Sequence record: OZ346158.1
Source of the DNA: a phage
Direction: 5' to 3' (one strand)
Length of the DNA stretch: 64,000 nucleotides
Shown here: in pieces, positions 2,362-33,170 of the stretch
Layout of the letters: every line of letters begins with the position of its first letter
Numbering within the stretch: position 1 is the stretch's first letter
Position numbers and translations under genes: made by a program
Notes under the pieces: model-generated
The model's database searches: none
Told to the model about the DNA's origin: nothing
What the model saw: the letters and a program-made list of their open reading frames with translations, nothing else

Positions 2362-4429
2362 ATTTATGGCATCTGCATACAACCGTTTCGGTGAGCCAAA
2401 CCCGAAAGCAACTAAGTATAAAAGTGGGGGAAGTGTGAAACGAGACTATCGTGATGAAAAAGAGGTTGAAACTGTAGAGACTGTTTTAGAAAATACTAAA
2501 ATTGTCCCTGTTCCACAACAAAATATCGGTCTGATGGCTGCACAATATTTTGGTGTGCGATCAGCATTGTCTCAAGAAGACGGTGTGACAGTTACTGCAA
2601 CATATTTCCCATATTACGACCGCTACGGAAATCTGTCAGGTTTCAAAAAGCGTGACTGGACGATTCCTAAAGAGCAAAGGGGCCATTTCTCAGTTGTTGG
2701 CATAGTAAAGGCTAACTCTCAGATGTTTGGGCAAAAGCTGTGTGCATCTTCCAACAACCGTAAGCAAATTAACGTTTGTGAGGGGGAAGGTGATGTTATT
2801 GCAGCATGGCAGGCTGCATATCAGATACAAGTAAAAGGGATTCTCACCAACGCTAAAGCCCCGGCAAAGGTGAAGCAGTGGGCTAAAGAGGTCCAGGACG
2901 GGATCGATGCAGTTATCAACGGTGGTGATCTGGCAGGAAAACCCTGCCTACCTTTTGTTGGAATTAACTGTGGATGTGCAAACGCAGTAGATACTTTTGC
3001 AAACAATGAGAAGTTTATCCGTAGCTATGGAACAGTTGTGCTGGCAATGGATAACGATGCAGCTAACGAGGTAGAGAAGCAAAAACACGTCATTAAAGGT
3101 GTCGAGGCCACGCACAATATCGCAGCATTTTTGATGGCTGATAACGTTTACCACGTAGAATACCCTGGTGAAGTAAACGACCCTGACGGTGTAAAAGATA
3201 TCCGAGACATGCTGAAGGCTAAAAAGCTGGAAGATATTGTCAACATGTTCCGGCATCCTGTTAAATATGTGCCTGATGCTGTGTCGGATTTAGAAGACTT
3301 CTCTATCGAGTCTTTGCGGAAAAAGACTTCCAACGGGGTAGATATCAGCGCAGAGTTCCCAAAACTGCAAAAAATGCTAAAAGGCTTGCACAAAGGTACA
3401 CTCGTAATGCTTACAGGCCCATCAGGTGGCGGTAAAACAACCGTAGCTAAAAAACTGGAACACTGTATTGCAAGATACCTAATGGACCCGACATGCCCGA
3501 AGGCTGATGACTATGAAGAGGATGATCGTCTATGTATGATCCATCTTGAGGAGGACCCAGAGGAAGCAATTAACTCCTTGTATGCAAACCAGTTAGGGTT
3601 TGATGTTAAAGAGTTTGTTGAAGATCCTAGCCAGTTTTTAACTGATCAAGAACACGCAGAGATTCATCAGTCATGGGCAAAAGCTGGAAAAATCAAAGTG
3701 TTCAAACATTTCGGGTCTATTCCGGTGGATGAGTTGATTACCAAGCTTAAGCAAATGGTTTGCCTGTACCATTGCCGTTATATTGTGCTGGATCACCTGT
3801 CCATGGTAATTTCAGGGCTTAATGTTAAGGATGAGCGAAAAGAACTGGACATGGCTATGACCCAACTGGCTGCGTTTTGTAAGCAGTTTAATGTGTTTAT
3901 CTTGGTGATCGCTCACCTCAAACGTACAGAGATTGTGCCTCCTAAGGACAAGGATGGTAACCCGTTACCTTTCTGGTATCCTGTGCGAAAAGAGAATTTG
4001 CGAGGATCGGCGGGGCTTGAACAGTTGAGTTGGGTAGTCATAGGTGTCGAGGCCGAAGAAATGGTGGATCGTTCTCGTGGACGTGTCCGTCTGGTAGGTC
4101 TTAAAAACCGTCCAGCAAAAACTCTAGGTATTGCTGACACTTTGGTTATGGACCCGCACACAGGTAAGTTCCATGATGCCAGTAATTGGTACTGGGACAA
4201 AGAAATGCAAATGTTTACAGACGGAGAAGGTGGGGAGGTTGTTTGGAGACCTCAGGCTATGTTTGAGGATCAGGAGCATGCAGTTGTAGAAACACCTATG
4301 GGCAAGGTTGTGGCTGATAAGGTTGTAACACCCACTGTCAAGCCTATTGACACGCAGGAAGACCTCCAATACGATGATCCATCCTCTGATCCGGTCCCTG
4401 GTTTTGAGGATGATGAAACACCTTTTTAA
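2351..4429 (+). CDS. DNA primase/helicase (T7 gp4-like; TOPRIM + DnaB-type helicase)
   Basis: CEGEGDVIAAW (TOPRIM E-G-x-x-D), Walker A LTGPSGGGKTT, 692 aa, immediately upstream of DNA polymerase. Confidence 0.75.
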   Translation: MGSKFMASAYNRFGEPNPKATKYKSGGSVKRDYRDEKEVETVETVLENTKIVPVPQQNIGLMAAQYFGVRSALSQEDGVTVTATYFPYYDRYGNLSGFKKRDWTIPKEQRGHFSVVGIVKANSQMFGQKLCASSNNRKQINVCEGEGDVIAAWQAAYQIQVKGILTNAKAPAKVKQWAKEVQDGIDAVINGGDLAGKPCLPFVGINCGCANAVDTFANNEKFIRSYGTVVLAMDNDAANEVEKQKHVIKGVEATHNIAAFLMADNVYHVEYPGEVNDPDGVKDIRDMLKAKKLEDIVNMFRHPVKYVPDAVSDLEDFSIESLRKKTSNGVDISAEFPKLQKMLKGLHKGTLVMLTGPSGGGKTTVAKKLEHCIARYLMDPTCPKADDYEEDDRLCMIHLEEDPEEAINSLYANQLGFDVKEFVEDPSQFLTDQEHAEIHQSWAKAGKIKVFKHFGSIPVDELITKLKQMVCLYHCRYIVLDHLSMVISGLNVKDERKELDMAMTQLAAFCKQFNVFILVIAHLKRTEIVPPKDKDGNPLPFWYPVRKENLRGSAGLEQLSWVVIGVEAEEMVDRSRGRVRLVGLKNRPAKTLGIADTLVMDPHTGKFHDASNWYWDKEMQMFTDGEGGEVVWRPQAMFEDQEHAVVETPMGKVVADKVVTPTVKPIDTQEDLQYDDPSSDPVPGFEDDETPF

Positions 4430-6881: not shown

Positions 6882-7753
6882 GAAGGTGTTCGTCGTATTA
6901 TTTATTACCATAAATAACATTGTGGCTTCGTGCAGTGATGCACGTCGAAAACCTCTTTAATTGACGGGAAGGCTAAGTTGACTTTTACACCTAAACATGG
7001 TAAAAGCTCAATATGCTAATCCGCAGCGAAGACTAAAGGGGTGTAGTTAAAATGGCTAGATCAGTTGATTATCACGGATATACCGTGTTTGATGATGGAA
7101 CAATACCTTTATCGAAACGTGATCATACAACAATGTTCTGTTTTGATAATGGTCGAGGTTACCTTTGCGTAACCATGTTCATCGAGGGGAAGCAGTGCAC
7201 AAAAGGTGTCCACCACTTGGTTGCTGAATGCTTTGTATCAAACCCTGATCCTGAAAGGCTCACATGGGTGAACCATAAGGACGGAAACAAATACAACAAT
7301 GCATACTGGAACCTTGAATGGACCACCCCTGGTGGAAATATCAAACACGCTTATGATAATGACCTCAGAGTAAGGCCAGTCGGTGAGTATAATGCCAACG
7401 CTGTACTGACCGAGGATGAGGTAACGGAGATTTGCGAACTGTTACAAAGTGGTTTACGACAATGCGAGATTAGGGATCTTGGGTATCCTTATGAGACGGT
7501 CAGAGCCATAAAGCAAAGAAGACAGTGGAAACATATCTCTAAAAACTACACCTGGTAGTAACGTTCAGAGACTATCGAAAGCATAGCGCCAACATAAATT
7601 GGTGCGAAGAAGCGAGTAGAGTAGGCCAGCAAGTGCGGTCGAAATGGGAGGTGCCTTGGTAACAAGGTAGTGAGATAGTCCGATCCATACAGGAAACTGT
7701 ATGGCTGTGCACGTAATGGTGCGGGGTAGCTTAACGACCTACCTGAACTATTG
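6882..7753 (+). mobile_element. group I intron in DNA polymerase gene (boundaries proposed)
   Basis: Conserved core elements read directly: P-like AATTGACGGGAAGG (about 6958-6971), Q AATCCGCAGC (7018-7027), R GTTCAGAGACTA (7563-7574), S GAGATAGTCCGATCC (7672-7686), P9 hairpin with GAAA loop (7685-7704); in-frame stop just after the 5' junction; HNH ORF between Q and R. Confidence 0.8.
7052..7558 (+). CDS. HNH homing endonuclease (I-HmuI-like), intron-encoded
   Basis: VHHLVAECF...VNHKDGNKYNNAYWNLEW HNH motif; own RBS aaagggg; lies inside the polymerase intron. Confidence 0.85.
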   Translation: MARSVDYHGYTVFDDGTIPLSKRDHTTMFCFDNGRGYLCVTMFIEGKQCTKGVHHLVAECFVSNPDPERLTWVNHKDGNKYNNAYWNLEWTTPGGNIKHAYDNDLRVRPVGEYNANAVLTEDEVTEICELLQSGLRQCEIRDLGYPYETVRAIKQRRQWKHISKNYTW

Positions 7754-11298: not shown

Positions 11299-12569
11299 TG
11301 AGCGTTATTCAACAATTCGCTAACCCGATGAATCCGCGTGAAACTGTTTTACTGGCTCACGGCATGATTAAACGCGTCAGCATCAAGCCTATCAAAGGTG
11401 CTGATCCTACAACAGGTATTAAAACCACTGTGTGGCAAGGTAAGAAAATTGAGTCCAGCCACACCATCTCTTTACTGATTTCTGAACTGGATTCCTCTGA
11501 TAACCTGCTTCAAGGTGGTGAAGAAGTCTGGATCAGCATGGGTGATAAACTGCTTAAACCGGGTCATCAAGACTCTGTCTCTGTTAAGATTGATGACAAG
11601 TGGGAAACCGTAACGCCAGGATGGATCGTAAATATCCCTTTGAAGGCAAACGAGCATAACGGTAAGACCTACTACAAGGGCTCACTGGCTAAGATGGTTA
11701 AGCTGGGTGCAGGGGAGGCTCCAGCAGCGACTCAGCAGCAAAAACAGCAACAAGGTGCACAATCACAAGGCCAGAAGCAGAAACCTCAGCAGAATGCCAA
11801 TCAGGACGTTTTACGCATCTATGGCGATGTGACTCAGATTGTTGGCAACGTGGTTACTGTTAATGACCACAAGATTGGCGAAGGTGCTATGGTTGTCACT
11901 GATGAGCAGCTTAAAGACCTGGTGGTAGGTGGTCGTGTTGCAGCCATTGTTGACAAAGACACCGGAAACATTATCAGTGGTTTCAAAGCCTACCCACCTA
12001 AGGCAGAGAACGGCACTCAAGGCTCTGGTGGCAAGCGTAAATCCTCTTACGACCCTATTGGTGTGGAGACGGGACATAGCATCAATGCGTTGCAAATCAT
12101 CCTGGATCGCGGGTTTAAGGTAGACGACCCACTAGGTGTGGCTAAAACACTGCACGTAGTCACCATTGAGCTTAAGAAAGAGTATGCTCAAGCCACCAAC
12201 CGAACTGAAGATGAAGTAGGTGCCAGTGTCGGTAATGCGGTGTTGAACGCTTGTCGCCGTATTGACAAGAAAACGAAAGTTGATGATTTTGCAGCGGCAA
12301 TTACTGCAGAAGCAAAAGATGTCTTGACTAATCTGGCTGAGCCGTTGTACGATTGGATCAAGAACGGTGCTGGGTCCACTGACCATCAAGAACCTCAAGC
12401 TGCCAAACAGGAAGCTGCTTCACAGCAAAATACTGTAGACGCTCCTCCTGTAAATGACGAGGAAGATGACCCAATGGATCAGAATCCAGCACAGTATGAC
12501 TTCTGTGATGACATACCTTTCGCTCCGGTGGGTTTGCAATATGGCAAAAGTAGAATCCACGCATTGTAA
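11298..12569 (+). CDS. putative ssDNA-binding protein with SSB-like acidic DDIPF tail
   Basis: Q/G-rich low-complexity linker ([20 protein letters not shown]) and C-terminal ...DFCDDIPF... resembling the bacterial SSB C-terminal DDDIPF tip; RBS aaggagac; in replication module. Confidence 0.4.
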
Positions 12570-13164
12570 GAGGTGCATCAAGTGTGGAGAGGTGAAAAAC
12601 CTCTCCGAGTTCTACAAACATCCAAAGATGTCTGACGGTCATCTTAATAAGTGCAAAGAGTGTTGCAAGAAGGCCAGCAGGGAGGCTGACCAATTTTCCC
12701 ACGACTCTTCAGAAAAAGGTGTGATCCGCGTGTTGTACAAGACTCAAAAGTGCAACAGTAAGAAGAGAGGTCACCCACCTCCGACTTACACCAAAAAAGA
12801 GTTTAAGGAGTGGCTATACCTAAACGGTTACAAAGAGTTGTATGATCAATGGGTAGCCAGCGGATACGACAAAAGGAAAAAGCCTTCTTGTGACAGGATA
12901 GATGATTTCAAAGGGTACTCTTTTGATAATATCCGTTTAACGACTTGGGGAGAAAATAAAGACAAGCAGACAGAGGATATTCTGTTACATAGAAGCACCA
13001 GCGGTAGACGGTGCAAAAATGTAAGGAGGTTGGACATGAATGGTAACGTTCTTAAAGAATGGGTATCCCACAATTCTTGCCGAAGAGAAACAGGGATATG
13101 TGTTGATTACTACATTCATGAAAAAATTCCAGCTCCCGATGGATACCTCTATGAATACTTCTAA
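12541..13164 (+). CDS. zinc-ribbon protein, possible degenerate HNH-type endonuclease
   Basis: N-terminal C-x2-C...SEFYK...C-x2-C arrangement common in phage freestanding HNH endonucleases; [12 protein letters not shown]...N...W resembles an HNH core with His replaced. Confidence 0.35.
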
Positions 13165-23885: not shown

Positions 23886-24236
23886 ATGAAAGTAAAACTA
23901 TATTACCTTAATGAGCTTAACCCCCTTGCCCAGGTCCGCGCCATGGCTAATACCTTGATTTGTGAGAAATCTGTATATTGTGTTGAGCTTAACTCCATGC
24001 GTGAACGTCTCAAAGGTGGTTACTTTGACATCCATGCTGCAATCAACGGCCTGAATATGGAATTTATCCGCTTACGTAACAGCCGCCAGAATCTGGGAAG
24101 AATGGAACAAGATCCGGCCCACCTTCGTAAGCTGGTTATTGAAAATCATCTAATGTTTAATGCCGATGGTGATTATTACCATTTTCACCGTAAACGCTGG
24201 TACCGTAGCGGCAATATAGGAAAGAATGCAAAATAA
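23886..24236 (+). CDS. hypothetical protein
   Basis: 116 aa; followed by terminator. Confidence 0.5.
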   Translation: MKVKLYYLNELNPLAQVRAMANTLICEKSVYCVELNSMRERLKGGYFDIHAAINGLNMEFIRLRNSRQNLGRMEQDPAHLRKLVIENHLMFNADGDYYHFHRKRWYRSGNIGKNAK

Positions 24237-24271
24237 GGCCCCTGGCAGGGCCTGCAGCGATATAATCACAT

Positions 24272-24306
24272 AAAGGCTATGCGGTTGCATAGCCTTTATT
24301 ATTTTG
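24272..24306 (+). terminator. rho-independent terminator
   Basis: AAAGGCTATGC-GGTT-GCATAGCCTTT followed by ATTATTTT. Confidence 0.7.
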
Positions 24307-24444
24307 GCGTTACAGCGGCCCCCAAGGCGCTTAAAAAAATTTTTAAAGAAGTACTTGCATCAAGTCCTACAATATGGATAATAAAGGGTGTCGGGGGGGC
24401 GGTGAGGCCTCCAATCATTAACCGGATAGATAGGAGTTAAAACC

Positions 24445-24729
24445 ATGGCTATTGTTACCGTTGGCGATGTAGTAGAAATGGAAGCCAAATACTTAAAAGC
24501 TGGTATGCATATCATACGGAATGATCAAGAATTGTTATTAACCATGGTTGAATATAATCCCGGTCAGGATTATCCAAGCATTGACTACTTTTTCCAGTAT
24601 GTTGATGAAGAATTAAAAGAGGATGAGGCTTATCAGGGTGAATTTTGTAATTTCTTTTGCCCTGATGAGGTTGTAAAAGTTATCTATCAACCTGGCGTAC
24701 CTTTCCCGCTGCACGCTATCAACAAATAA
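24445..24729 (+). CDS. hypothetical protein
   Basis: 94 aa; RBS ATAGGAGTTAAAACCATGG. Confidence 0.55.
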   Translation: MAIVTVGDVVEMEAKYLKAGMHIIRNDQELLLTMVEYNPGQDYPSIDYFFQYVDEELKEDEAYQGEFCNFFCPDEVVKVIYQPGVPFPLHAINK

Positions 24730-24784
24730 ACCTGGCGGGGCCGAAAAGGCCCCCAATTATGAAAATAAAGAGAGGCAAATCATC

Positions 24785-25018
24785 ATGATGGAACAAATTA
24801 AACGCGCCGAGGCTATTAATGGCAACGTGATCTATTTTGTCAGCAAAAACGAAAAAGGCGTACCCTATGCGGCGGTAATAGTACAGCCTGACGGCGATTA
24901 TTGGTGTACTGTGTACGGCGCTTATTCTTTTGGGCGTCCAGTGCATGATAAAATTTTGAAAGTAGCGAACCCTACCGGGAAAAATATCACAGCAGAAAAA
25001 TTTTTTGAAAATAGTTGA
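24785..25018 (+). CDS. hypothetical protein
   Basis: 77 aa; RBS aaagagaggcaaatcatc. Confidence 0.55.
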   Translation: MMEQIKRAEAINGNVIYFVSKNEKGVPYAAVIVQPDGDYWCTVYGAYSFGRPVHDKILKVANPTGKNITAEKFFENS

Positions 25019-25042
25019 CATGACCATATAAGACTGTAGTAT
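25015..25042 (+). promoter_or_regulatory. sigma70-like promoter (TTGACA-16-TAGTAT)
   Basis: Upstream of a 59-aa ORF at about 25090..25269. Confidence 0.5.
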
Positions 25043-25779
25043 ATAAATCAAAGGGGCAAGCCCCACCAACCACAAAGAGGATAAAAATCATGGCTATTAT
25101 TGCAAAGACTGAGATCGTAGGCTTGGATTCTATTCTCCTCGCATATGAGGAAGCTATAGAAATGTATGTGGTTTCCTATGGTGAGTATATCCGTGAATAT
25201 AAATCTATTGATCTGGCTTTTGAATGTTATATTCGCCAGGTTAATAAAGCGTACGATGATTATCGTTAAAATAGTTTGAAAACAAACAACCATCTTACAA
25301 AGCATAATACATAAGGCGGTGGAATGGTCCGCCACCTGGAACAAGAAGAGGAAAACAAAATGAAACAGAAATTAATTGATGCGGTGATCCTGGTTATTGC
25401 CCTGGGTATTGGCCTGATTGCAACCATGGCTAATGTGATCTTGTCTTCCAACGGTATCGGGTGAGGTTGGCAAATGATCACTAACAAAACAGGCAAGCGG
25501 AATTTTTACTCAACTTACAGATCGGCAAGCCTGAGATCTGGTATTGCACTAAAACACCACGTGACGAAATGAAAGACTTCACCGCCACGCTGCAACGGGT
25601 AAAGATATCCATCACGCAGAAAAAGGCCTTGATAGTGGTGGAAGGTGAGATCCCTCAAACCGTTGTTATAGTTGAGCGTACAGCATAGTTTAATTTATAC
25701 CGATACCCGAAAATTAACCAACAAAGCATAAACAGGCGGTTACCGCCGCCTTAAACGTAGCAGAAAGAGGATAGACACA

Positions 25780-26064
25780 ATGAAAAAGATGATCGCAGTG
25801 GTTGCCCTGGTTGTTGGACTTAATGCGCCTGTAATGGCTAAAGAGCTGGCAAAAGAGGTTAATCTAACGGATATTCATGCCGTCAATCGAATCGGGGTTA
25901 CTTATCGCTTATGCCTTGCCGCTAAAACTTTTAAGGACGGCACGACAGAGTACTACGGATTCGAAGGTGTCCGGTGCGGTGAACTTGCTCGCGACCTTAA
26001 GGAAGATCCAGACCTGGAGGATCTGCCCATCACCGTAAACGGGAAAACTTACGTAAACCGTTAA
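25780..26064 (+). CDS. hypothetical secreted protein (signal peptide)
   Basis: N-terminus MKKMIAVVALVVGLNAPVMA is signal-peptide-like; RBS aaagaggat. Confidence 0.55.
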   Translation: MKKMIAVVALVVGLNAPVMAKELAKEVNLTDIHAVNRIGVTYRLCLAAKTFKDGTTEYYGFEGVRCGELARDLKEDPDLEDLPITVNGKTYVNR

Positions 26065-26212
26065 CCATGATAAAGATAATCATCACCTTGGCATCGTGGC
26101 GGGATCGCTGGCGCTCTTTCTCCTTATGGTTAGGTATGTGCTGATCGGTATTGTCCTGGTAGTCAGTGATCTATTGGAAACGGTTGGCACCTTGTTTTAA
26201 AGAGCGGTAAAA

Positions 26213-26404
26213 ATGAATATCGAACAAGTTAGAAAGGTATTGGCGGTACTGCGTTATCATAATCATAGAAAGGTCATAGACGATCCTGATTATGTCGATT
26301 CAAGCCTGGAAGGGGATACACTACAAGCCATAAGTAACATGCAAGAATTGCTAAAGCGCATGACAGAGAAAAACCGACCGGACTACATAGGCGAAAAAAT
26401 ATAA
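26213..26404 (+). CDS. hypothetical protein
   Basis: 63-aa ORF. Confidence 0.45.
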   Translation: MNIEQVRKVLAVLRYHNHRKVIDDPDYVDSSLEGDTLQAISNMQELLKRMTEKNRPDYIGEKI

Positions 26405-26615
26405 TCCTTATAAACTACAAAACAGGGCTTGCAATGGTCCTGTTTTTTGTTATACTTGTTTCACGGCAGGCGCCTGGCGACGGGGGAGACAATCACCGGG
26501 TGTGCCTGCTATATAAAAACTATAAAAACCGTTGACATCTGCCAGGTGGTGGGGTAGCATTTATCTCGAAGGGGGCAAAAGCGCCCACACAACAACCGGA
26601 AGAGAGGAAAACGCC

Positions 26616-26888
26616 ATGTTAAGCTGGATTAACCAAGAAGTTGAATCACGTTTCAATGCTATTTGGGATCTCATCGAAAAAGAGGACGGAACATCAAGCC
26701 CTTATCTCAATAATCTTGAATTCCATTTCGTGGAAGCGATGAACGCAGAACATGATCACGAAGGTGGTGCGGATGAATTCGCTAAAGGATATGGCTTCAA
26801 CAATGCCAACGAAATGATCGAGGCGGTTGTACTCCAGGCTGAGGAAGATTATCAATTAAAAACGCTTGAATTCTGCCGCCGTAAGTAA
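26616..26888 (+). CDS. hypothetical protein
   Basis: ORF track 26532..26888; internal ATG after gaagagaggaaaac; upstream TTGACA at about 26532. Confidence 0.5.
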   Translation: MLSWINQEVESRFNAIWDLIEKEDGTSSPYLNNLEFHFVEAMNAEHDHEGGADEFAKGYGFNNANEMIEAVVLQAEEDYQLKTLEFCRRK

Positions 26889-26950
26889 TAAGATAATGAC
26901 ACGGGCCAAAAGGCCCACTAAACAAAAACCACATAAAGAGGAAAAACATC

Positions 26951-27214
26951 ATGAAACGTCTTGATCAGCTCAAATTAGTTCAATATATGGCTTATCGTGT
27001 TCTTGAAGTCCAGAAAGGTAGCAAAAAAGAGGTTTGCGAGAAAGCTTATAAGATCTTCACTCGCAAAAAAGATGATTGGATGTTACGCCAGACCAAAAAA
27101 GCCGATATCTTGGGGTACCTGGAAGAAGAGATCCGGCTTGAAGAGCAAGAAGAGATCCGCCGCAGTGAGGCAGATTATCAGGCAGCTTGGGAAAACTGGA
27201 TGAATAACAAATAA
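26951..27214 (+). CDS. hypothetical protein
   Basis: 87 aa; RBS aaagaggaaaaac; preceded by GGGCCAAAAGGCCC hairpin. Confidence 0.55.
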   Translation: MKRLDQLKLVQYMAYRVLEVQKGSKKEVCEKAYKIFTRKKDDWMLRQTKKADILGYLEEEIRLEEQEEIRRSEADYQAAWENWMNNK

Positions 27215-27280
27215 TACAACAAGTTACATGGTCAGGGGCAATAAAGCCCCTTGATCACATAAAAATTATGCCATCCTTGG

Positions 27281-27309
27281 TTGACAGGGATCGGCAGTTT
27301 TGCTATATT
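27281..27309 (+). promoter_or_regulatory. sigma70-like promoter (TTGACA-17-TATATT)
   Basis: Upstream of gene 27359. Confidence 0.55.
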
Positions 27310-27358
27310 CTTTTTTGAAGGGAAGTTGTAAGAAAATTAACTAAGAGGTAAAAACACC

Positions 27359-27778
27359 ATGAACATTAAATCTAATAATCCGGCATATAGCTTTGATAAC
27401 GCTTTTTGTCACGGTCCGGCGGCGAAAGGATTCGAAATCGATGGTAAACTAGTTATTGTCAATGTTGACGGGGAAGAGGTTGCAGTATATCCGGTGGCAG
27501 ACGTTAAAAGCCGTCTACAATGCCGCATCGATGTTACCGCCTACCAGCTTGATCCGGTCCGGGTAGTTGCCCTGGTCCTGGAAGAAGAAATTAAAGCAAT
27601 GCACCACAGCAACAAGTTTATTGGTGACGCTCAAGATAATATGAAGGTGTGCCGCCATAAAGTTAATGAAGTGCTTAAAGAATATGGCTTTAAAGATCTG
27701 ATGATCAAACGTGAGGAAAAATTCCGCTACCGTAACGACCTGGCAAATCGGATTTTTGAAATATACGAATCATTATAA
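27359..27778 (+). CDS. hypothetical protein
   Basis: 139 aa; RBS aagaggtaaaaac. Confidence 0.55.
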   Translation: MNIKSNNPAYSFDNAFCHGPAAKGFEIDGKLVIVNVDGEEVAVYPVADVKSRLQCRIDVTAYQLDPVRVVALVLEEEIKAMHHSNKFIGDAQDNMKVCRHKVNEVLKEYGFKDLMIKREEKFRYRNDLANRIFEIYESL

Positions 27779-27796
27779 TTTCTTAACTGAATTATC

Positions 27797-27824
27797 AAGG
27801 GGCTTAAAGGCCCCTTTCTTTTTG
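27797..27824 (+). terminator. rho-independent terminator ending the + strand block
   Basis: AGGGGC-TTAAAG-GCCCCT followed by TTCTTTTTG. Confidence 0.7.
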
Positions 27825-28544
27825 TCTGCTCTTCTCCTACCATAAACGGCCCTACCTGGCAAGTGGAATAATTGACTAGCCATCAATCCCACATACTGTA
27901 CAAATATACATGGAAAATAACTATTGCATAATTTTTCATTGTGTGGTAGCAAGTCCATTTTTACCCGTTTTCTCTCCCAAAAGTGCACGTAATGCCGCTA
28001 TTGCACAAATTTTAACCTGATGCACATCTCCAATATCTTGTCAACAACTAAAAATCTTTATAAGTCATACACTTACACAGCATCGAAAGCGTGTTCTACG
28101 CGAAAAATCGAGTATAACTATAGCCGCCAGATCTCAGAATTCACGTACGCACGCCATTCTATAGCCTGCAAAGTATTTATTCCAACCACAGAATAACGGA
28201 ATAGTCAATACCTGCATAAAATAATTATTCGTGTAAACTGCATAACATAAATCAGCTCAGGTGTCAACATTTTTCGTAAACAGTCCGAAATTATCACGAT
28301 GAGTTATCATAAACAGAGAAATCTTTAGTCGTCTAATGTTTACTGTACATTACTATACTGACTGGAATCATTAGATGACTAATACAATAGAACAAATTAA
28401 TAATGTAATTATTTTACCTGTAACAATAAGGCAACTATGCAAACGAATGGCATGGCGCGACGGAGTCGCGACATAATATAAAAGCAGTAACCATCACCCC
28501 CGTGATAGTTTGTCTGCAAACTATTAATCAGATCATAGTTGCCT

Positions 28545-28584
28545 TGTATTTAGTTAATCATGACATAACAAGCAAGGCAACTAT
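28545..28584. repeat. 12-bp perfect inverted repeat ATAGTTGCCTTG / CAAGGCAACTAT with third copy at about 28429
   Basis: Read directly; hairpin or operator-like, at the 3' end of the - strand gene block. Confidence 0.6.
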
Positions 28585-28591
28585 AGATATA

Positions 28592-28849
28592 CTAAACCAT
28601 AGCTTCAAAAGGAGTCATGAACGAATAAACGGCATCATCATCTGCTTCAGGGAATGCTCCCAAAGACTTCATATCTGAACCCTTGACAAATACAAGGTTT
28701 TGATCAAAGGCTTCTTGGGGGTCAATCCGATACATATTTCGTAGAATATCGCTTACCTCCTCATCAAGAGGTGAGTATGCTGTGCACGTTTTTCCGATCA
28801 AGCTTTGAGAATCAGGGTATCCACCTGAAGTTTTAAAATAAACAATCAT
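28592..28849 (-). CDS. hypothetical protein (possible distant member of small paralog family)
   Basis: 85-aa ORF. Confidence 0.45.
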   Translation of the reverse strand: MIVYFKTSGGYPDSQSLIGKTCTAYSPLDEEVSDILRNMYRIDPQEAFDQNLVFVKGSDMKSLGAFPEADDDAVYSFMTPFEAMV

Positions 28850-28940
28850 ATAGTATCACCTCTGGTAAGAGATTGGGATTCCTTTCCCACAAATAATTAC
28901 AAATCTTCCTTATCGAGGAAGTATGCTAATCCAAGCAGGA

Positions 28941-29210
28941 TTATTCCTCTACAATCTCATACACATCAGGAGTTACAATCAATTCTTCTCCGTTACCCGG
29001 TGCAACAAACACCACCAAACCTTCAGGTGTGTGCTTTTTAGCCATCTCGATAACATCTTCTCGCAGAGCTGGCTCCATCAGATCAAAACCTTCACCCAGG
29101 GCATCACGAACCACCTTCATATAGTCCACTGGTTGTGCTTCAACAATCATGCCTTCAACCAGTCCACAGTTTTTGTCTGCCAGCTCAGTTTTGAATAATT
29201 TAATTTTCAT
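28941..29210 (-). CDS. hypothetical protein, MK[VI]K-x-[LF] paralog family member
   Basis: Starts MKIKLF, ends EIVEE; RBS gaggag; family resemblance to 30467, 30711 and 34360 genes. Confidence 0.55.
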   Translation of the reverse strand: MKIKLFKTELADKNCGLVEGMIVEAQPVDYMKVVRDALGEGFDLMEPALREDVIEMAKKHTPEGLVVFVAPGNGEELIVTPDVYEIVEE

Positions 29211-29347
29211 TTAGAGGTCTCCTCAATTATTTGATATTAATAGCCGTAACCTAACACATTAACTACAACTGCGATTGCAAACATAATTTCAAAGCATGCA
29301 ATCTCTACATTTGGGACTAATTTCTTAATCACACCCATTGTAGCACC

Positions 29348-29665
29348 TCATTTTCCAAAGTCAATCTTTACTTTGCCTTTCCCCTTACCTTTCTTTCCAC
29401 CGCATTTAGCCAGCTGACGTGCTGCAACATCTACCATACGGTCAGTTGCCTCGTAAGCATCACTACCTTTAGCCTTGGCAATAACTTCTTTTCCAGAATT
29501 GTCAAAAATGAACGCCATAACTTCCTGGTGATCATTTTCAACTTTTACACTCACACGTGCATAGTTGGCAGAGGGGTGCAAACGCTCCAGTTTAGACATT
29601 TTGTTGGAAATGAAAGACACCATACCTTCAGTGATTTCTACGTTGCCAGTGATTTCAATTTGCAT
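29348..29665 (-). CDS. ribosome hibernation-promoting factor / RaiA (YfiA) family homolog
   Basis: MQIEITGNVEITEGM...KLERL...ARVSVK...D...ARQL parallels bacterial HPF/RaiA (MQLNITG...EITEAL...KLE...KHK) as recalled. Confidence 0.7.
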   Translation of the reverse strand: MQIEITGNVEITEGMVSFISNKMSKLERLHPSANYARVSVKVENDHQEVMAFIFDNSGKEVIAKAKGSDAYEATDRMVDVAARQLAKCGGKKGKGKGKVKIDFGK

Positions 29666-29747
29666 AACGTGTTCCTTTTAAAGAAGAGGGAACCAAACCC
29701 TCTTTGAAAACAATGATACTAAATCTGAAGCGTTGTGTCAACAGTTT

Positions 29748-30038
29748 TTACAGATTGTTGTCGATAGTTTTTAAAATATCCACAGCAAGATCTGCCATTT
29801 TTCGAACATACTCTGCAAACTCAACAGGATCCTTGATCAAAGAATTCACAGGGTCGTACCCTAGAGCGTTCAAAATGGCTGCAGCATCTACAACCTTCTC
29901 ATCATTTGCGAAGATCTCTCCATCAAACTTGTAGGTCCATTTTGAGTCAATCTTGGCAGGGAAGGATTGGTCAACGCTTGTTACACCATCCTTTTTAAAC
30001 GCTCCGGTGTTATCAGTGTCCAGAACTAAATCCATCAT
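29748..30038 (-). CDS. hypothetical protein
   Basis: 96-aa ORF. Confidence 0.5.
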   Translation of the reverse strand: MMDLVLDTDNTGAFKKDGVTSVDQSFPAKIDSKWTYKFDGEIFANDEKVVDAAAILNALGYDPVNSLIKDPVEFAEYVRKMADLAVDILKTIDNNL

Positions 30039-30055
30039 GTTAGTACCCCACTGTT

Positions 30056-30454
30056 TCAGTTTAGCTTTTCTTCAACAACCCCATAGCTCGGGACAGAGTC
30101 AAGAGCTTTCTGGTTTAAAAGTGGTGTAGCAGAATCTGCAAACGGTGTCCAAGTTTTTGTTCTGGCATTCCAGTAATGCTTCACTCTGGAATCTGGATGC
30201 ACTATAACAAAAACTTTTTCACTTGTCAACACATTAATTTCTTCTACACCCTTGCTGATAATTTCTCCGTCATAGCCCCCAGTCTGGTATCCTTCGTACC
30301 AGGTTCTTGCATAGGCATAGCCAGCTTGCCAGCATGCAGCCTCCTCCGAGGTGGAGACTACGTAGAAGTCTTTCTCAAATTCTGGAATACGCCCTTGCTT
30401 TATGCTCCAAGCTCCGCGAATTTTCATTGTAACTTTGAACAGTTTATTTTTCAC
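30056..30454 (-). CDS. hypothetical protein
   Basis: 132-aa ORF. Confidence 0.5.
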   Translation of the reverse strand: MKNKLFKVTMKIRGAWSIKQGRIPEFEKDFYVVSTSEEAACWQAGYAYARTWYEGYQTGGYDGEIISKGVEEINVLTSEKVFVIVHPDSRVKHYWNARTKTWTPFADSATPLLNQKALDSVPSYGVVEEKLN

Positions 30455-30466
30455 AACGGTTACCCA

Positions 30467-30721
30467 TCACAGCTCTACAATATTTGCATCTGACCCTACC
30501 CCAAAGGCATAATAGGACTCTTCCCCGAAATAATATTCAGGTGCACCAGCGGTGATCAGGTCTGCTCCTAAGATAAACACTACGTTGTGGCCTACATAAC
30601 TGTGATGTTGCCGAACAGGATCATCCCACGGCAACCCTTCAAAGTATACCGCAGGAACGACCTTTCCCTTCAGGAAGGATTGTCCCAAGTAGACGTTAGA
30701 ATCAAGAATTTTAACCTTCAT
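30467..30721 (-). CDS. hypothetical protein, MKVK-x-L paralog family member
   Basis: MKVKILDSNVYLGQ...GADLITAGA...IVEL. Confidence 0.55.
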   Translation of the reverse strand: MKVKILDSNVYLGQSFLKGKVVPAVYFEGLPWDDPVRQHHSYVGHNVVFILGADLITAGAPEYYFGEESYYAFGVGSDANIVEL

Positions 30722-30938
30722 GATTGTCCTCCACTATCTCTACATCCTCACCTAGGGCAAAGTTGTAGGTCCACTGACTGTCAAAGCATTCCTGAGATGC
30801 ACCAGCGGCAATAAGATCTGCCCCTTTTATTTTTAAAAGGTCGGGGTAATCTTCGTTAGGGACAGCAGTAAACACTTTCCCCACTAAGGGCTCCTGACCA
30901 ATATAGAAGCTCGAATCTAAAACTTTAACTTTCATCAA
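30711..30938 (-). CDS. hypothetical protein, MKVK-x-L paralog family member
   Basis: MMKVKVLDSSFYIGQ...KGADLIAAGA...EIVED. Confidence 0.55.
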   Translation of the reverse strand: MMKVKVLDSSFYIGQEPLVGKVFTAVPNEDYPDLLKIKGADLIAAGASQECFDSQWTYNFALGEDVEIVEDNHEG

Positions 30939-31222
30939 CGGTCTCCATCAGGTGGTTGTGGGACGTAAACACTGTTACGAATATCGTCCGCAGTATAGTA
31001 ATAAGTGTCTCCAACCCTATCTCTGGCTGCAATGTACTCTGCTATACCAATAAGTGCCATTGATTTGGTGGCGTATCTTCCCCACTCGTTAGCTCCCCAG
31101 TAGAATTTAGACCAGTAAGGAATAAGACCGAACAAATATACCTTTTGACGAACTTCCCAGTAAGTGCCTTTTCCGACAAGTTTAAACTCGACTTCACTAC
31201 TGTTAATCTTTTTCATTATCAA
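30935..31222 (-). CDS. hypothetical protein
   Basis: 95-aa ORF in overlapping-stop chain. Confidence 0.5.
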   Translation of the reverse strand: MIMKKINSSEVEFKLVGKGTYWEVRQKVYLFGLIPYWSKFYWGANEWGRYATKSMALIGIAEYIAARDRVGDTYYYTADDIRNSVYVPQPPDGDR

Positions 31223-31515
31223 TCTCCCTCTACCGTGGTAGGATTGTCAGTAAGAAATTGAGCATTGGCTGGAGGCACGCCTGACATTTTCCACACAACC
31301 ATAAGTTTGTAACCAGGCACTCTATTAAGTGCAGATCGAGTAGAGTTTGTGCACGTATACTTTCGCTTTCCAAACCCGTTCTCCATCATAATCCAGTACC
31401 CAGTATCTTTGTCACCAGGTATCGGTAGACCACCTTCATCAACCCACTGAATGGACCACGGCACGATGGCTACAGCTTTATATTTAAACTTTTTAAACCA
31501 CTCAAAAAGTTTCAT
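31219..31515 (-). CDS. hypothetical protein
   Basis: 98-aa ORF. Confidence 0.5.
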   Translation of the reverse strand: MKLFEWFKKFKYKAVAIVPWSIQWVDEGGLPIPGDKDTGYWIMMENGFGKRKYTCTNSTRSALNRVPGYKLMVVWKMSGVPPANAQFLTDNPTTVEGD

Positions 31516-31610
31516 AATTCAGCCTCGCATAGACATAATCACTATAAACAGGCAAACAATGAATCCGAATGCCACGCCACCCATAAACGTTAATATTGAT
31601 GCAATCATAG

Positions 31611-31796
31611 TCAATCAGCCTCGCTTGGCAACTCTTCTACCTTAACATGCCGAAAAGTGTTACCGTAATGGTTGATCCATGACATCAGCTCGCTTTCTTG
31701 CTCTTCCTCTGGGATGAACTCTCGAATGCTGACAAGTTTTAAGAAAACCCAATCACAATCTGCACCCATTCTACCAGACAGGCAATAGTGCTTCAT
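31611..31796 (-). CDS. hypothetical protein
   Basis: 61-aa ORF. Confidence 0.4.
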   Translation of the reverse strand: MKHYCLSGRMGADCDWVFLKLVSIREFIPEEEQESELMSWINHYGNTFRHVKVEELPSEAD

Positions 31797-31814
31797 AAAA
31801 CCCTCCCGCCTGGT

Positions 31815-32009
31815 TTAGAATATTGCTTCTTCCATTGCGCCTGAGAGCAACAAAGAGGTGATCTGGCTAACATTCATCTCAGACTCTACTTCCTCCCCTT
31901 TGAAAGGTTCGCGGCAGAATAGGACTGTTTCAGGACTTTTACTTCGAACAATATAATACAAATCATTCAATGTGTTGTAGTAATAAGTGTTAAAACGTAA
32001 GTTTTTCAT
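31815..32009 (-). CDS. hypothetical protein
   Basis: 64-aa ORF. Confidence 0.4.
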   Translation of the reverse strand: MKNLRFNTYYYNTLNDLYYIVRSKSPETVLFCREPFKGEEVESEMNVSQITSLLLSGAMEEAIF

Positions 32010-32293
32010 TTTCTAGTCCTCTTCTTAGATTTTTGGGGAGAAACGCTTTCTGCAATACGAGACAGACGTTCTTCTGAAGCCTTACCTACTCCAGGTTTTT
32101 TGAGTGGATTATCTTTATGACCACAATCCAACTGGATATTGGATACCTCTCCAACTTTGTAAGTCAATTCTAGCAAAAGGTTGTCGTCCTTGTCAAATGT
32201 TTTTACGATAAATTTTTTATCGTTCTCCTGAACTTCATATCTGGTACCTGCAGTATACAGCATGGTGCCATCAGCATAGGATATCCAAATCAT
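32006..32293 (-). CDS. hypothetical protein
   Basis: 95-aa ORF, start/stop overlap with neighbours. Confidence 0.5.
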   Translation of the reverse strand: MIWISYADGTMLYTAGTRYEVQENDKKFIVKTFDKDDNLLLELTYKVGEVSNIQLDCGHKDNPLKKPGVGKASEERLSRIAESVSPQKSKKRTRK

Positions 32294-32637
32294 TGAGCCT
32301 CCTTTTGCTGCAACAGCATTAACTCTTTGTTAGAAATCTTTACTGCTGTTTTTATTGTTCCATCTTCACGAAACCACGACCAGAACTCTACAGTGTCACC
32401 ACTATCAAGTAAAGCATGCCCATGGTAAAAATCTTTGTCCTTAGACAGTTTCTCATCTATATCTGCATCAACACATTCGTGATCCATAGCATTTTGCCTG
32501 AACGCATCGGTTATGCCAATGCACGCCTTGCTCTCAAGACTGGTATATCCGATATCTTTTAATTCAGTTTCCCAAGTCCAGTACCCTATAAAAGCTAAAA
32601 CAGCTACCCACAGTAATAACGTTTTAATCTTTGGCAT
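32290..32637 (-). CDS. hypothetical protein with N-terminal signal/TM segment
   Basis: MPKIKTLLLWVAVLAFIGYWTW hydrophobic N-terminus. Confidence 0.5.
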   Translation of the reverse strand: MPKIKTLLLWVAVLAFIGYWTWETELKDIGYTSLESKACIGITDAFRQNAMDHECVDADIDEKLSKDKDFYHGHALLDSGDTVEFWSWFREDGTIKTAVKISNKELMLLQQKEAQ

Positions 32638-32699
32638 TCTCTCTACCTCTTTCTTAGTTTATTTCACTATGGCACATCCTTTGTGCCATATCTCAACTA

Positions 32700-33170
32700 C
32701 TACTTAAATAGTAGTTCAAAATAGTGCAAAATTAACAGAAGTTGAACTACACCTAGTGCAACGGCGAGTATGTTAATCTTAGAATCGAAAAACTTCTTAA
32801 CTTTTACTCTAAAAGGTTCCTTAATGTCCTTTACGATCCTATCTATAGATGACCTCATATCTCTGATTACCATCCTGAACATTAAAGACGGATGCTCCCC
32901 CATCTCTGTAACGGAATCGAAAACATACTCTCTTCGGTCATAAGGGCCGCCAGCTCTGCGTATTAACCTCTCCACAGAGACCTCGAACGTCACACCTGTA
33001 ACGTAATCATCTATAACAAGTCGTGACGGGTCTTTACCTTTACTGTCAAGAGGTATCAAAGTTATCTTTCCAGATTTTGTTAAAATTTCCCCTTTTTCAA
33101 GCAAGGTGTACCAATGCTCTCTGCCAAGACTGTTGAGGCACGTTTTTACATATTTAACAAACATCGTCAC
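32700..33170 (-). CDS. hypothetical protein with C-terminal TM segment
   Basis: 156 aa; C-terminal LAVALGVVQLLLILHYF. Confidence 0.5.
   Translation of the reverse strand: MTMFVKYVKTCLNSLGREHWYTLLEKGEILTKSGKITLIPLDSKGKDPSRLVIDDYVTGVTFEVSVERLIRRAGGPYDRREYVFDSVTEMGEHPSLMFRMVIRDMRSSIDRIVKDIKEPFRVKVKKFFDSKINILAVALGVVQLLLILHYFELLFK

Follow-up and report, generated by a model that had tools for sequence, protein, structure and literature searches.

In the 64,000-nucleotide stretch of phage DNA studied here (sequence record OZ346158.1; in its full length referred to as the window), a block of plus-strand genes and the last minus-strand gene converge on an AT-rich zone of about 760 bp (27826–28591) which contains no recognisable gene but several copies of a 12-bp motif, further repeats and hairpins. 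What such a zone may be for is the question raised by this locus, and the first-pass annotation of the sequence had offered a non-coding RNA, a bidirectional terminator or a protein-binding locus as possible answers. Comparison with related genomes reveals that the zone corresponds to the inner, left-hand portion of the non-coding region at the genome termini of Vequintavirus phages, cut short within a large nested palindrome by a jump of 6.4 kb. From its sequence pattern we infer that this terminal-region palindrome, truncated in the window, most likely represents a pair of back-to-back intrinsic terminators, a reading to which we assign a probability of roughly 60 %.

Identity of the gene-free zone

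Megablast assigns the window to Vequintavirus, i.e. to the rV5-like myoviruses of Escherichia coli. The zone is 89–98 % identical in all 120 matching Vequintavirus records, nearly all of which leave it unannotated, and the conservation in relatives by which the first-pass annotation proposed to check its finding is clearly present. No DNA similarity to the zone was detected beyond this genus. Positions 27791–28595 of the window align to positions 1491–685 of the Gotham record and 1485–685 of the EdH4 record (90–94 % identity), and in the relatives the zone lies downstream of the same gene for a protein of 139 amino acids (aa) and of the same terminator. The native gene-free region of these relatives has a length of about 2.5 kb, lies between convergently transcribed gene blocks and spans the concatemer junction. 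It contains the direct terminal repeat (DTR) of 458–459 bp which constitutes the physical ends of the virion DNA. In the Gotham record a 459-bp repeat_region is present at both ends, in agreement with the published 459-bp direct terminal repeat of this phage (PMC7471380), and terminal redundancies of 458 bp have been reported independently for EdH4 and HdK5 (PMC6563267). In the rV5 genome paper the region is drawn as a grey ‘non-coding’ box, and the change in skew observed there is ascribed by its authors to a switch in transcription direction (PMC3606486). Clearly, the zone constitutes the inner left-hand part of the Vequintavirus terminal non-coding region, and the terminal regions of rV5, Gotham, EdH4 and HdK5 are its direct homologues, from which the genome in the window differs by the absence of the DTR and of 6.4 kb. 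Position 28595 of the window equals record position 685 in both Gotham and EdH4, which is located 225 bp inside the left DTR; the homology to the terminal region stops there, 225 bp short of the DTR, and the zone is not continuous with a DTR in the window. The zone is only about 760 bp long and abuts the minus-strand gene because the sequence jumps by 6.4 kb between 28595 and 28596, so that the 760-bp “convergence zone” of the first-pass annotation is not a native unit but the left part of a terminal non-coding region of about 2.5 kb, and its convergence with the minus-strand gene at 28592 has arisen only secondarily.

The gene-free stretch is bounded on its left side by the terminator of the plus-strand block and on its right side by the stop codon of the minus-strand open reading frame (ORF):

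27797–27816, plus strand: intrinsic terminator belonging to the plus-strand gene block, AAGGGGCTTAAAGGCCCCTT with TCTTTTT behind it, found by pattern scan; left edge of the zone
27826–28426, no strand: AT-rich gene-free spacer, homologous to positions ~860–1460 of the Gotham and EdH4 records, unique DNA inside the left terminal repeat
28592–28849, minus strand: last minus-strand gene, 85 aa, of unknown function, matching positions 1–85 of the 87 positions of phrog_13920

The GC content of the zone amounts to 36.3 % (33–34 % across 28000–28600) compared to 42.9 % in the whole window. Its twelve ORFs of at least 20 aa include none which appears gene-like upon comparison with nine relatives; the longer ones are disrupted in most of these genomes, and non-synonymous changes by far outnumber synonymous ones, which rules out hidden genes for small proteins. 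Thus, the description of this stretch as AT-rich and gene-free is confirmed. The GGGGC/GCCCC stem of the terminator at its left edge is kept in the relatives while the loop is variable, the annotations of Gotham, Murica and Alma list the equivalent element as a terminator, and it is at this terminator that the GC skew changes sign.

During the search for relatives we came across some 18–20 records labelled as C. jejuni phages (‘Campylobacter phage’ MG0656xx; D1, C2, C12 and others) which in this region are 92–98 % identical to rV5-like phages of E. coli. As their lengths range from 75 to 143 kb, too, their host labels or assemblies look doubtful.

The breakpoint and the missing 6.4 kb

The point at which the homology to the terminal region ends is defined as follows:

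28595–28596, no strand: breakpoint; its left side corresponds to position 685 of Gotham and EdH4, its right side to a point at a distance of 6189 bp from the right end of the genome

In all relatives the match to the window ends at 28588–28595, and the sequence from 28595 onwards matches the same relatives about 6.4 kb further on, 6414 bp being missing relative to Gotham. The missing segment comprises the 225 bp adjoining the DTR, the DTR itself, about 1 kb of non-coding DNA which is 97–100 % identical among relatives, and 13–17 small genes, all of unknown function except for one encoding a 101-aa phrog_639 ‘transcriptional regulator’. With it, the fourth copy of the 12-bp motif, the remainder of the palindrome and a tandem array of 16-bp repeats are removed. 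The breakpoint coincides with the first base of motif copy 4, and the microhomology at the join is restricted to a single nucleotide (...CTA[A]ACCATAGC...). Owing to the join, the minus-strand gene has lost its last two codons and is terminated instead by a stop codon which originates from the left side (...AMVVG-stop to ...AMV-stop; 85 vs. 87 aa), and for the exact 85-aa junction protein no record exists in an index of 153 billion genes. The join also creates a weak sigma-70-like match spanning the junction (28608–28580, minus strand; TTGAAG-17-TATAGT, 9/12, chance level), the -35 element of which stems from the right parent and the -10 element from motif copy 3.

A relocation of the missing DNA within the window can be ruled out since the 6414 bp, including the DTR, give no blastn match anywhere in these 64 kb. 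Small indels aside, the remainder of the window runs collinear to MaxTheCat. Two segments of about 640 bp each (6976–7620 and 12521–13159), situated within and after the DNA polymerase region, are absent from MaxTheCat and may be intron- or homing-endonuclease-type insertions. The junction occurs in none of 123 phage records and was likewise found neither in IMG/VR nor in complete E. coli genomes, plasmids or JGI metagenomes. Ten contigs from NCBI, ENA and Logan which encode the identical neighbouring 139-aa protein do not show it either; all of them possess the full gap of about 2.5 kb. Nor is the deletion present in the shorter relatives V18, EduardKellenberger and rV5_ev146, all of which keep the region.

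Within the lost segment, the far-side non-coding kilobase (Gotham L003, ~930–1400) is more conserved among nine relatives than the genes flanking it. In these relatives it bears a near-consensus sigma-70 promoter (TTGACA-16-TG-TAAAAT, 11/12; 1321–1294, minus strand) which reads towards the DTR and is followed within about 30 nt by a small terminator-like hairpin (1271–1259, minus strand). Promoter and hairpin could give rise to a short leader or small RNA, or the promoter could drive transcription across the concatemer junction.

Whether the jump reflects a real deletion or a mis-join produced during assembly or finishing is a matter of roughly even odds, and the reads are needed to tell the two apart. 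In the case of an artefact, to which we would grant an even chance, two contig ends may have been joined with the loss of a segment which varies between strains; alternatively, the assembly may represent a minority or defective variant. Such an origin agrees with the presence of the DTR and its flanks in every other genome or contig examined and with the reported defined ends of Vequintavirus genomes at the DTR, on account of which a genome lacking the DTR should not package. It also agrees with the essentially blunt join and with a left breakpoint placed exactly where the relatives begin to differ in sequence and length, as is typical of a break in an assembly graph. Moreover, the nearest relative switches across the junction. 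To its left (24000–28588) WalterGehring is closest (99.3 %; MaxTheCat 91–96 %), while to its right (28595–33000) pangalan, MaxTheCat and CarlMeissner are closest (99.9 %; WalterGehring 97.3 %). This change could result from the assembly of a mixed sample or from mosaicism, the latter being normal between relatives in Vequintavirus and hence speaking against an artefact. The minus-strand gene, too, remains intact save for two codons and is closed by an immediate in-frame stop, the breakpoint falls within a large palindrome, and such palindromes are classic substrates of real deletions, and the lost genes are small, of unknown function and of a kind which is often dispensable. In a 2026 study of a cocktail-derived Vequintavirus, replicate contigs were found to differ by 6.2 kb (PMC13211470), which may be taken as a lead only as nothing links it to the window. 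That the junction is real in the full sense, namely that a viable Vequintavirus has lost the DTR, the repeat arrays, half of the palindrome and 13–17 early genes by a single 6.4-kb deletion starting inside the palindrome, we regard as improbable.

Architecture and possible role of the nested palindrome

Between the AT-rich spacer and the breakpoint, the window contains the following elements:

28427–28438, plus strand: motif copy 1, TAAGGCAACTAT; 11 of 12 bases match, the shared 11-mer exactly
28437–28456, plus strand: first copy of a 20-nt direct repeat, ATGCAAACGAATGGCATGGC; the second copy is missing in the window
28456–28470, plus strand: small GC-rich hairpin CGCGAC-GGA-GTCGCG, overlapping the GTCGCGAC palindrome at 28465–28472
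28470–28487, plus strand: left arm, GACATAATATAAAAGCAG, of a perfect 18-nt inverted repeat by which the nested palindrome of the relatives is closed; the window has lost the right arm
28489–28510, minus strand: 9-bp hairpin followed by ACUGCUUUUAUAUU, resembling an intrinsic terminator in two pattern scans
28516–28546, minus strand: motif copy 2 (ATAGTTGCCTTG on the plus strand at 28535–28546) and a partial fifth copy (GCAAACTAT at 28516–28524), together the left side of the palindrome's long inner stem
28573–28584, plus strand: motif copy 3, CAAGGCAACTAT; pairs with copy 2 across a spacer of 26 nt

The repeats are real and non-random. The 11-mer AAGGCAACTAT shared by the motif copies has exactly three matches in the 64-kb window, all of them within 157 bp (28428–28584), compared to 0.08 expected by chance, and none of 100 shuffles reaches this number. 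Per dinucleotide shuffle of the zone, both a perfect 12-bp inverted repeat within 100 bp and a GC-rich 6-bp hairpin of the CGCGAC type are expected 0.008 times, and perfect 6-bp hairpins amount to seven in the zone vs. 1.6 expected. The repeats reported by the first-pass annotation are thus present, albeit with deviations in detail. The perfect 12-bp inverted repeat starts at 28535 rather than at 28545, i.e. 10 bp further to the left, and ends at 28584 as described. The third direct copy, placed at about 28429, extends from 28427 to 28438 and agrees with the motif in 11 of 12 bases, only the shared 11-mer being exact. The hairpin CGCGAC-GGA-GTCGCG, given as about 28455–28472, occupies precisely 28456–28470.

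To put these elements into the context of an intact genome, we derived their architecture from a repeat map of Gotham and an alignment of nine relatives, extended to twenty. In the orientation of the window, copy 1 is followed by the 20-nt repeat, the GTCGCGAC hairpin, the left 18-nt arm, the 9-bp hairpin, the partial motif, copy 2 and copy 3. After a further 10 nt, copy 4 (ATAGTTGCCCTG) overlaps the right 18-nt arm, to which a variable spacer, the second 20-nt repeat, the tandem 16-bp array and the DTR are attached. Successive motif copies point in opposite directions and are separated by 96, 26 and 10 bp, the last of these spacers, between copies 3 and 4, being found in the relatives, where copy 3 may alternatively pair with copy 4 across these 10 nt. 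Copy 1 occurs in all aligned relatives including FV3, while copy 4 follows copy 3 in every aligned relative except FV3 and is absent from the window. The second 20-nt repeat, located 228–323 bp to the right of the first, completes a pair which brackets the palindrome. The motif copies including copy 4, the 18-nt inverted repeat (659–676 and 793–810 in Gotham), which forms the outer stem of the palindrome folds, and the side hairpin together constitute a single nested palindrome of about 170 nt, which lies some 200–500 bp from the inner DTR boundary. In its intact form it folds with -79.1 kcal/mol (z = -8.8) on the plus strand and with -81.9 kcal/mol (z = -8.3) on the minus strand; for the left two-thirds, all that the window retains, the z-scores drop to -4.1 and -2.4.

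Among twenty relatives the helices of the palindrome are invariant. Single-sided changes are few, and variable positions mostly fall into predicted loops, bulges and interior loops. The CGCGAC-GGA-GTCGCG hairpin is invariant, too, save for an insertion of one nucleotide in Alma, and is absent from FV3. The minus-strand hairpin keeps its stem while its loop varies, and in one relative (L021) a U.G pair is changed to C-G. In view of the invariant helices a covariation test is without power. The invariance fits any constraint on the palindrome or the motif and does not separate models in which it acts as RNA, as DNA or as a protein-binding site.

In contrast to the conserved DTR (95–98 %), the segment between palindrome and DTR is a hotspot of indels among relatives. 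The tandem array of the GTAAACAGT type abuts the inner DTR boundary (Gotham L004, 496–580) and consists of about four 16-bp copies in Gotham but of about twelve in V5 and Murica. V18 has kept palindrome and DTR while lacking both the tandem array and the second 20-nt repeat. FV3 (NC_019517, ~3650–3670) shows a single 20-nt repeat with nothing between; small hairpin, 9-bp hairpin and copies 2–4 are all missing, and among about 120 Vequintavirus records it is the only one without the palindrome, which is consistent with recombination between the 20-nt repeats or with a loss of the palindrome during cloning or sequencing. Overall, for each sub-element to the left of the DTR there is at least one deposited genome which lacks it, whereas the DTR is present in all but the window. 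In rV5 (NC_011041) an insertion of 33 bp, AAACTCAGGCATAGCCTTCGTCTCGAGGATGTT, is found in the loop between motif copies 2 and 3, and it is also between these copies that the alignment of the C9, A147 and LL12 records to the window ends. A search of IMG/VR with the motif pair returned one rV5-like contig and three unrelated matches.

The arrangement of hairpins and T-rich tracts argues for two intrinsic terminators, both of which would draw on the 18-nt inverted repeat with its A-rich and its T-rich arm. The hairpin formed by copies 3 and 4, followed by CUUUUAUAUU, would halt plus-strand read-through from the left gene block, while on the minus strand the hairpin at 28510–28489, followed by CUGCUUUUAUAUU, would halt leftward transcripts. 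In replicating concatemers, such a pair may keep transcription of the two convergent units from entering the genome-end region. The role of the palindrome would be accessory rather than essential, consistent with its complete absence from FV3. In line with this reading, each hairpin receives its T-rich tract from one arm of the 18-nt inverted repeat, which corresponds to the geometry of a bidirectional terminator, and the copy-3/copy-4 hairpin with the adjoining CTTTTATATT was independently called a terminator by the annotators of Murica and Alma. The minus-strand hairpin comprises nine pairs, three of them G-C, is followed by ACUGCUUUUA and lies downstream of the last minus-strand gene in the window, at a distance of 82 nt from its stop codon. 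The second plus-strand terminator of the relatives, by contrast, is cut in half here. Of the possibilities offered by the first-pass annotation, the bidirectional terminator is best supported, namely by the terminator at 27797–27816, the minus-strand hairpin with its U-tract and the annotations in relatives; in the window, the plus-strand half of the palindrome is destroyed. Only the minus-strand half survives and would end the minus-strand operon.

The likeness to known bidirectional intrinsic terminators consists in hairpins flanked by A-rich and T-rich tracts, by which each strand reads a hairpin and a U-tract, in the position between convergent blocks and in the prediction of the site by standard finders in two relatives. 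In contrast to these, the nested palindrome of about 170 nt is far larger and more composite, presents a different final hairpin on each strand and is located about 700 bp past the terminator proper of the plus block. A number of further points weigh against back-to-back terminators. Their function is deduced from sequence pattern only. The plus block already possesses a strong terminator 780 bp upstream, and the minus-strand hairpin has just three G-C pairs and a short U-run. In intact relatives, no sigma-70-like promoter is predicted upstream of this hairpin, which would there have transcripts to stop only if these cross the DTR from the strong far-side promoter. As the palindrome folds equally well on both strands, a role at the DNA level (cruciform, end-processing hairpin or protein binding) fits the same data. 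The case for its dispensability rests on a single genome, that of FV3, the sequence of which dates from around 2011, and palindromes are easily lost in cloning and sequencing. Finally, a genome without DTR is hard to reconcile with site-specific packaging at the DTR, which casts doubt on the junction sequence itself.

The balanced folding also underlies a different explanation, in which palindrome and motif copies serve as a cis-acting DNA element (hairpin, cruciform or binding sites of the terminase small subunit) for the processing and packaging of genome ends when the DTR is cut and duplicated from concatemers. Equal folding on both strands is what one would expect of a DNA palindrome, and in the relatives the element lies, as described above, close to the inner DTR boundary and beside the variable GTAAACAGT array. 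It is present in about 118 of about 120 records, and repeat-rich non-coding DNA next to terminal repeats is known from T7 as well as, according to bioRxiv 10.1101/866236, from T5. Against strict necessity, however, argues that FV3 without palindrome and V18 without array were both deposited as complete, and the spacing between palindrome and DTR varies by hundreds of bp. We consider such a packaging element, by analogy with the concatemer junction of T7, rather unlikely.

A structured non-coding RNA of about 170–220 nt, encoded on either strand and able to switch between helices 1:2 + 3:4 and 2:3 + 1:4, would account for the very stable folds. The helices have two imperfections, both of which read as G.U wobbles on the minus strand and as A.C mismatches on the plus strand, and the GC skew of the zone agrees with transcription of the minus strand; yet two wobbles on one strand amount to a coin toss (P = 0.5), and any palindrome yields a high fold score. 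No Rfam family matches at the gathering score in the window or in the end regions of Gotham, nor at E ≤ 1 in 27700–28700, and ARAGORN finds no tRNA or tmRNA. The number of promoter-like sites in the zone does not exceed chance level (8 vs. 5.0 +/- 2.2 expected), which speaks against these sigma-70 matches as drivers of a small RNA. With the helices invariant there is no compensatory change and no covariation to count, and FV3 lacks the cluster. The non-coding RNA gene suggested by the first-pass annotation has thus found no specific support, and we deem it distinctly improbable.

A similarly low probability is assigned to the motif copies being operators of a phage DNA-binding protein, for which the 101-aa phrog_639 regulator encoded in the missing block would be a candidate, or iterons of an origin. 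Four 12-bp copies in inverted pairs with spacers of 10 bp and 26 bp are typical of sites for dimers, the motif is invariant across relatives, and the putative regulator gene is about 3.5 kb away in these genomes. On the other hand, the overall spacing (96, 26 and 10 bp) is irregular, the 64-kb window contains no further copies of the motif, for instance at promoters, and FV3 lacks copies 2–4. As to an origin, the zone contains neither DnaA boxes nor IHF sites, and the rV5 authors explained the skew change by transcription orientation (PMC3606486). With irregular spacers, and regular 16-bp repeats being absent from the window, neither a DnaA/iteron origin nor a region of the T5 iss type is recognisable.

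Relation to other phage genome ends and significance

At the concatemer junction of T7 the terminal repeat is flanked by arrays of short repeats and by an inverted repeat which has been implicated in hairpin-primed duplication of the repeat. The Vequintavirus relatives resemble this arrangement in that the unique DNA next to a short exact DTR harbours both repeat arrays and an inverted repeat, and in that their strong far-side promoter points across the junction. In contrast to this likeness, there is no sequence similarity, sub-elements are individually missing in FV3 and V18, and the DTR is absent from the window. The injection-stop (iss) region of T5, which belongs to the untranslated portion of its left terminal repeat, bears a conserved set of eight DnaA boxes (bioRxiv 10.1101/866236), compared to none in the zone and two relaxed matches in the 2.5-kb region of Gotham. 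Furthermore, it is situated inside a repeat of about 10 kb whereas the Vequintavirus palindrome lies outside the 459-bp repeat. To our knowledge, a two-step injection is not known for rV5-like phages.

While the intact element is of a familiar kind, its fine structure appears to be undescribed. The architecture of palindrome and repeats is unmentioned in PMC7471380, PMC6563267 and PMC3606486, and few records carry small ‘terminator’ or ‘repeat_region’ features. For the window this means that the zone is to be regarded not as an independent 760-bp regulatory locus but as a truncated copy of a terminal region common to rV5-like coliphages, and that the sequence around 28595 is suspect until compared with reads. 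If the deletion were real, the palindrome would be a deletion hotspot at the concatemer junction. If the genome truly lacked its DTR, the mapped DTR would not be required for packaging in this lineage, which would have to rely on new ends or another packaging mode, and the packaging mechanism assumed for the genus would be challenged. The intact element with its palindrome, 20-nt repeats, 16-bp array, DTR and near-invariant kilobase is an obvious place in which to seek packaging, end-duplication and insulation signals. As rV5-like phages are widely used in the biocontrol of E. coli O157 and in therapy, such signals matter for the engineering and rebooting of their genomes.

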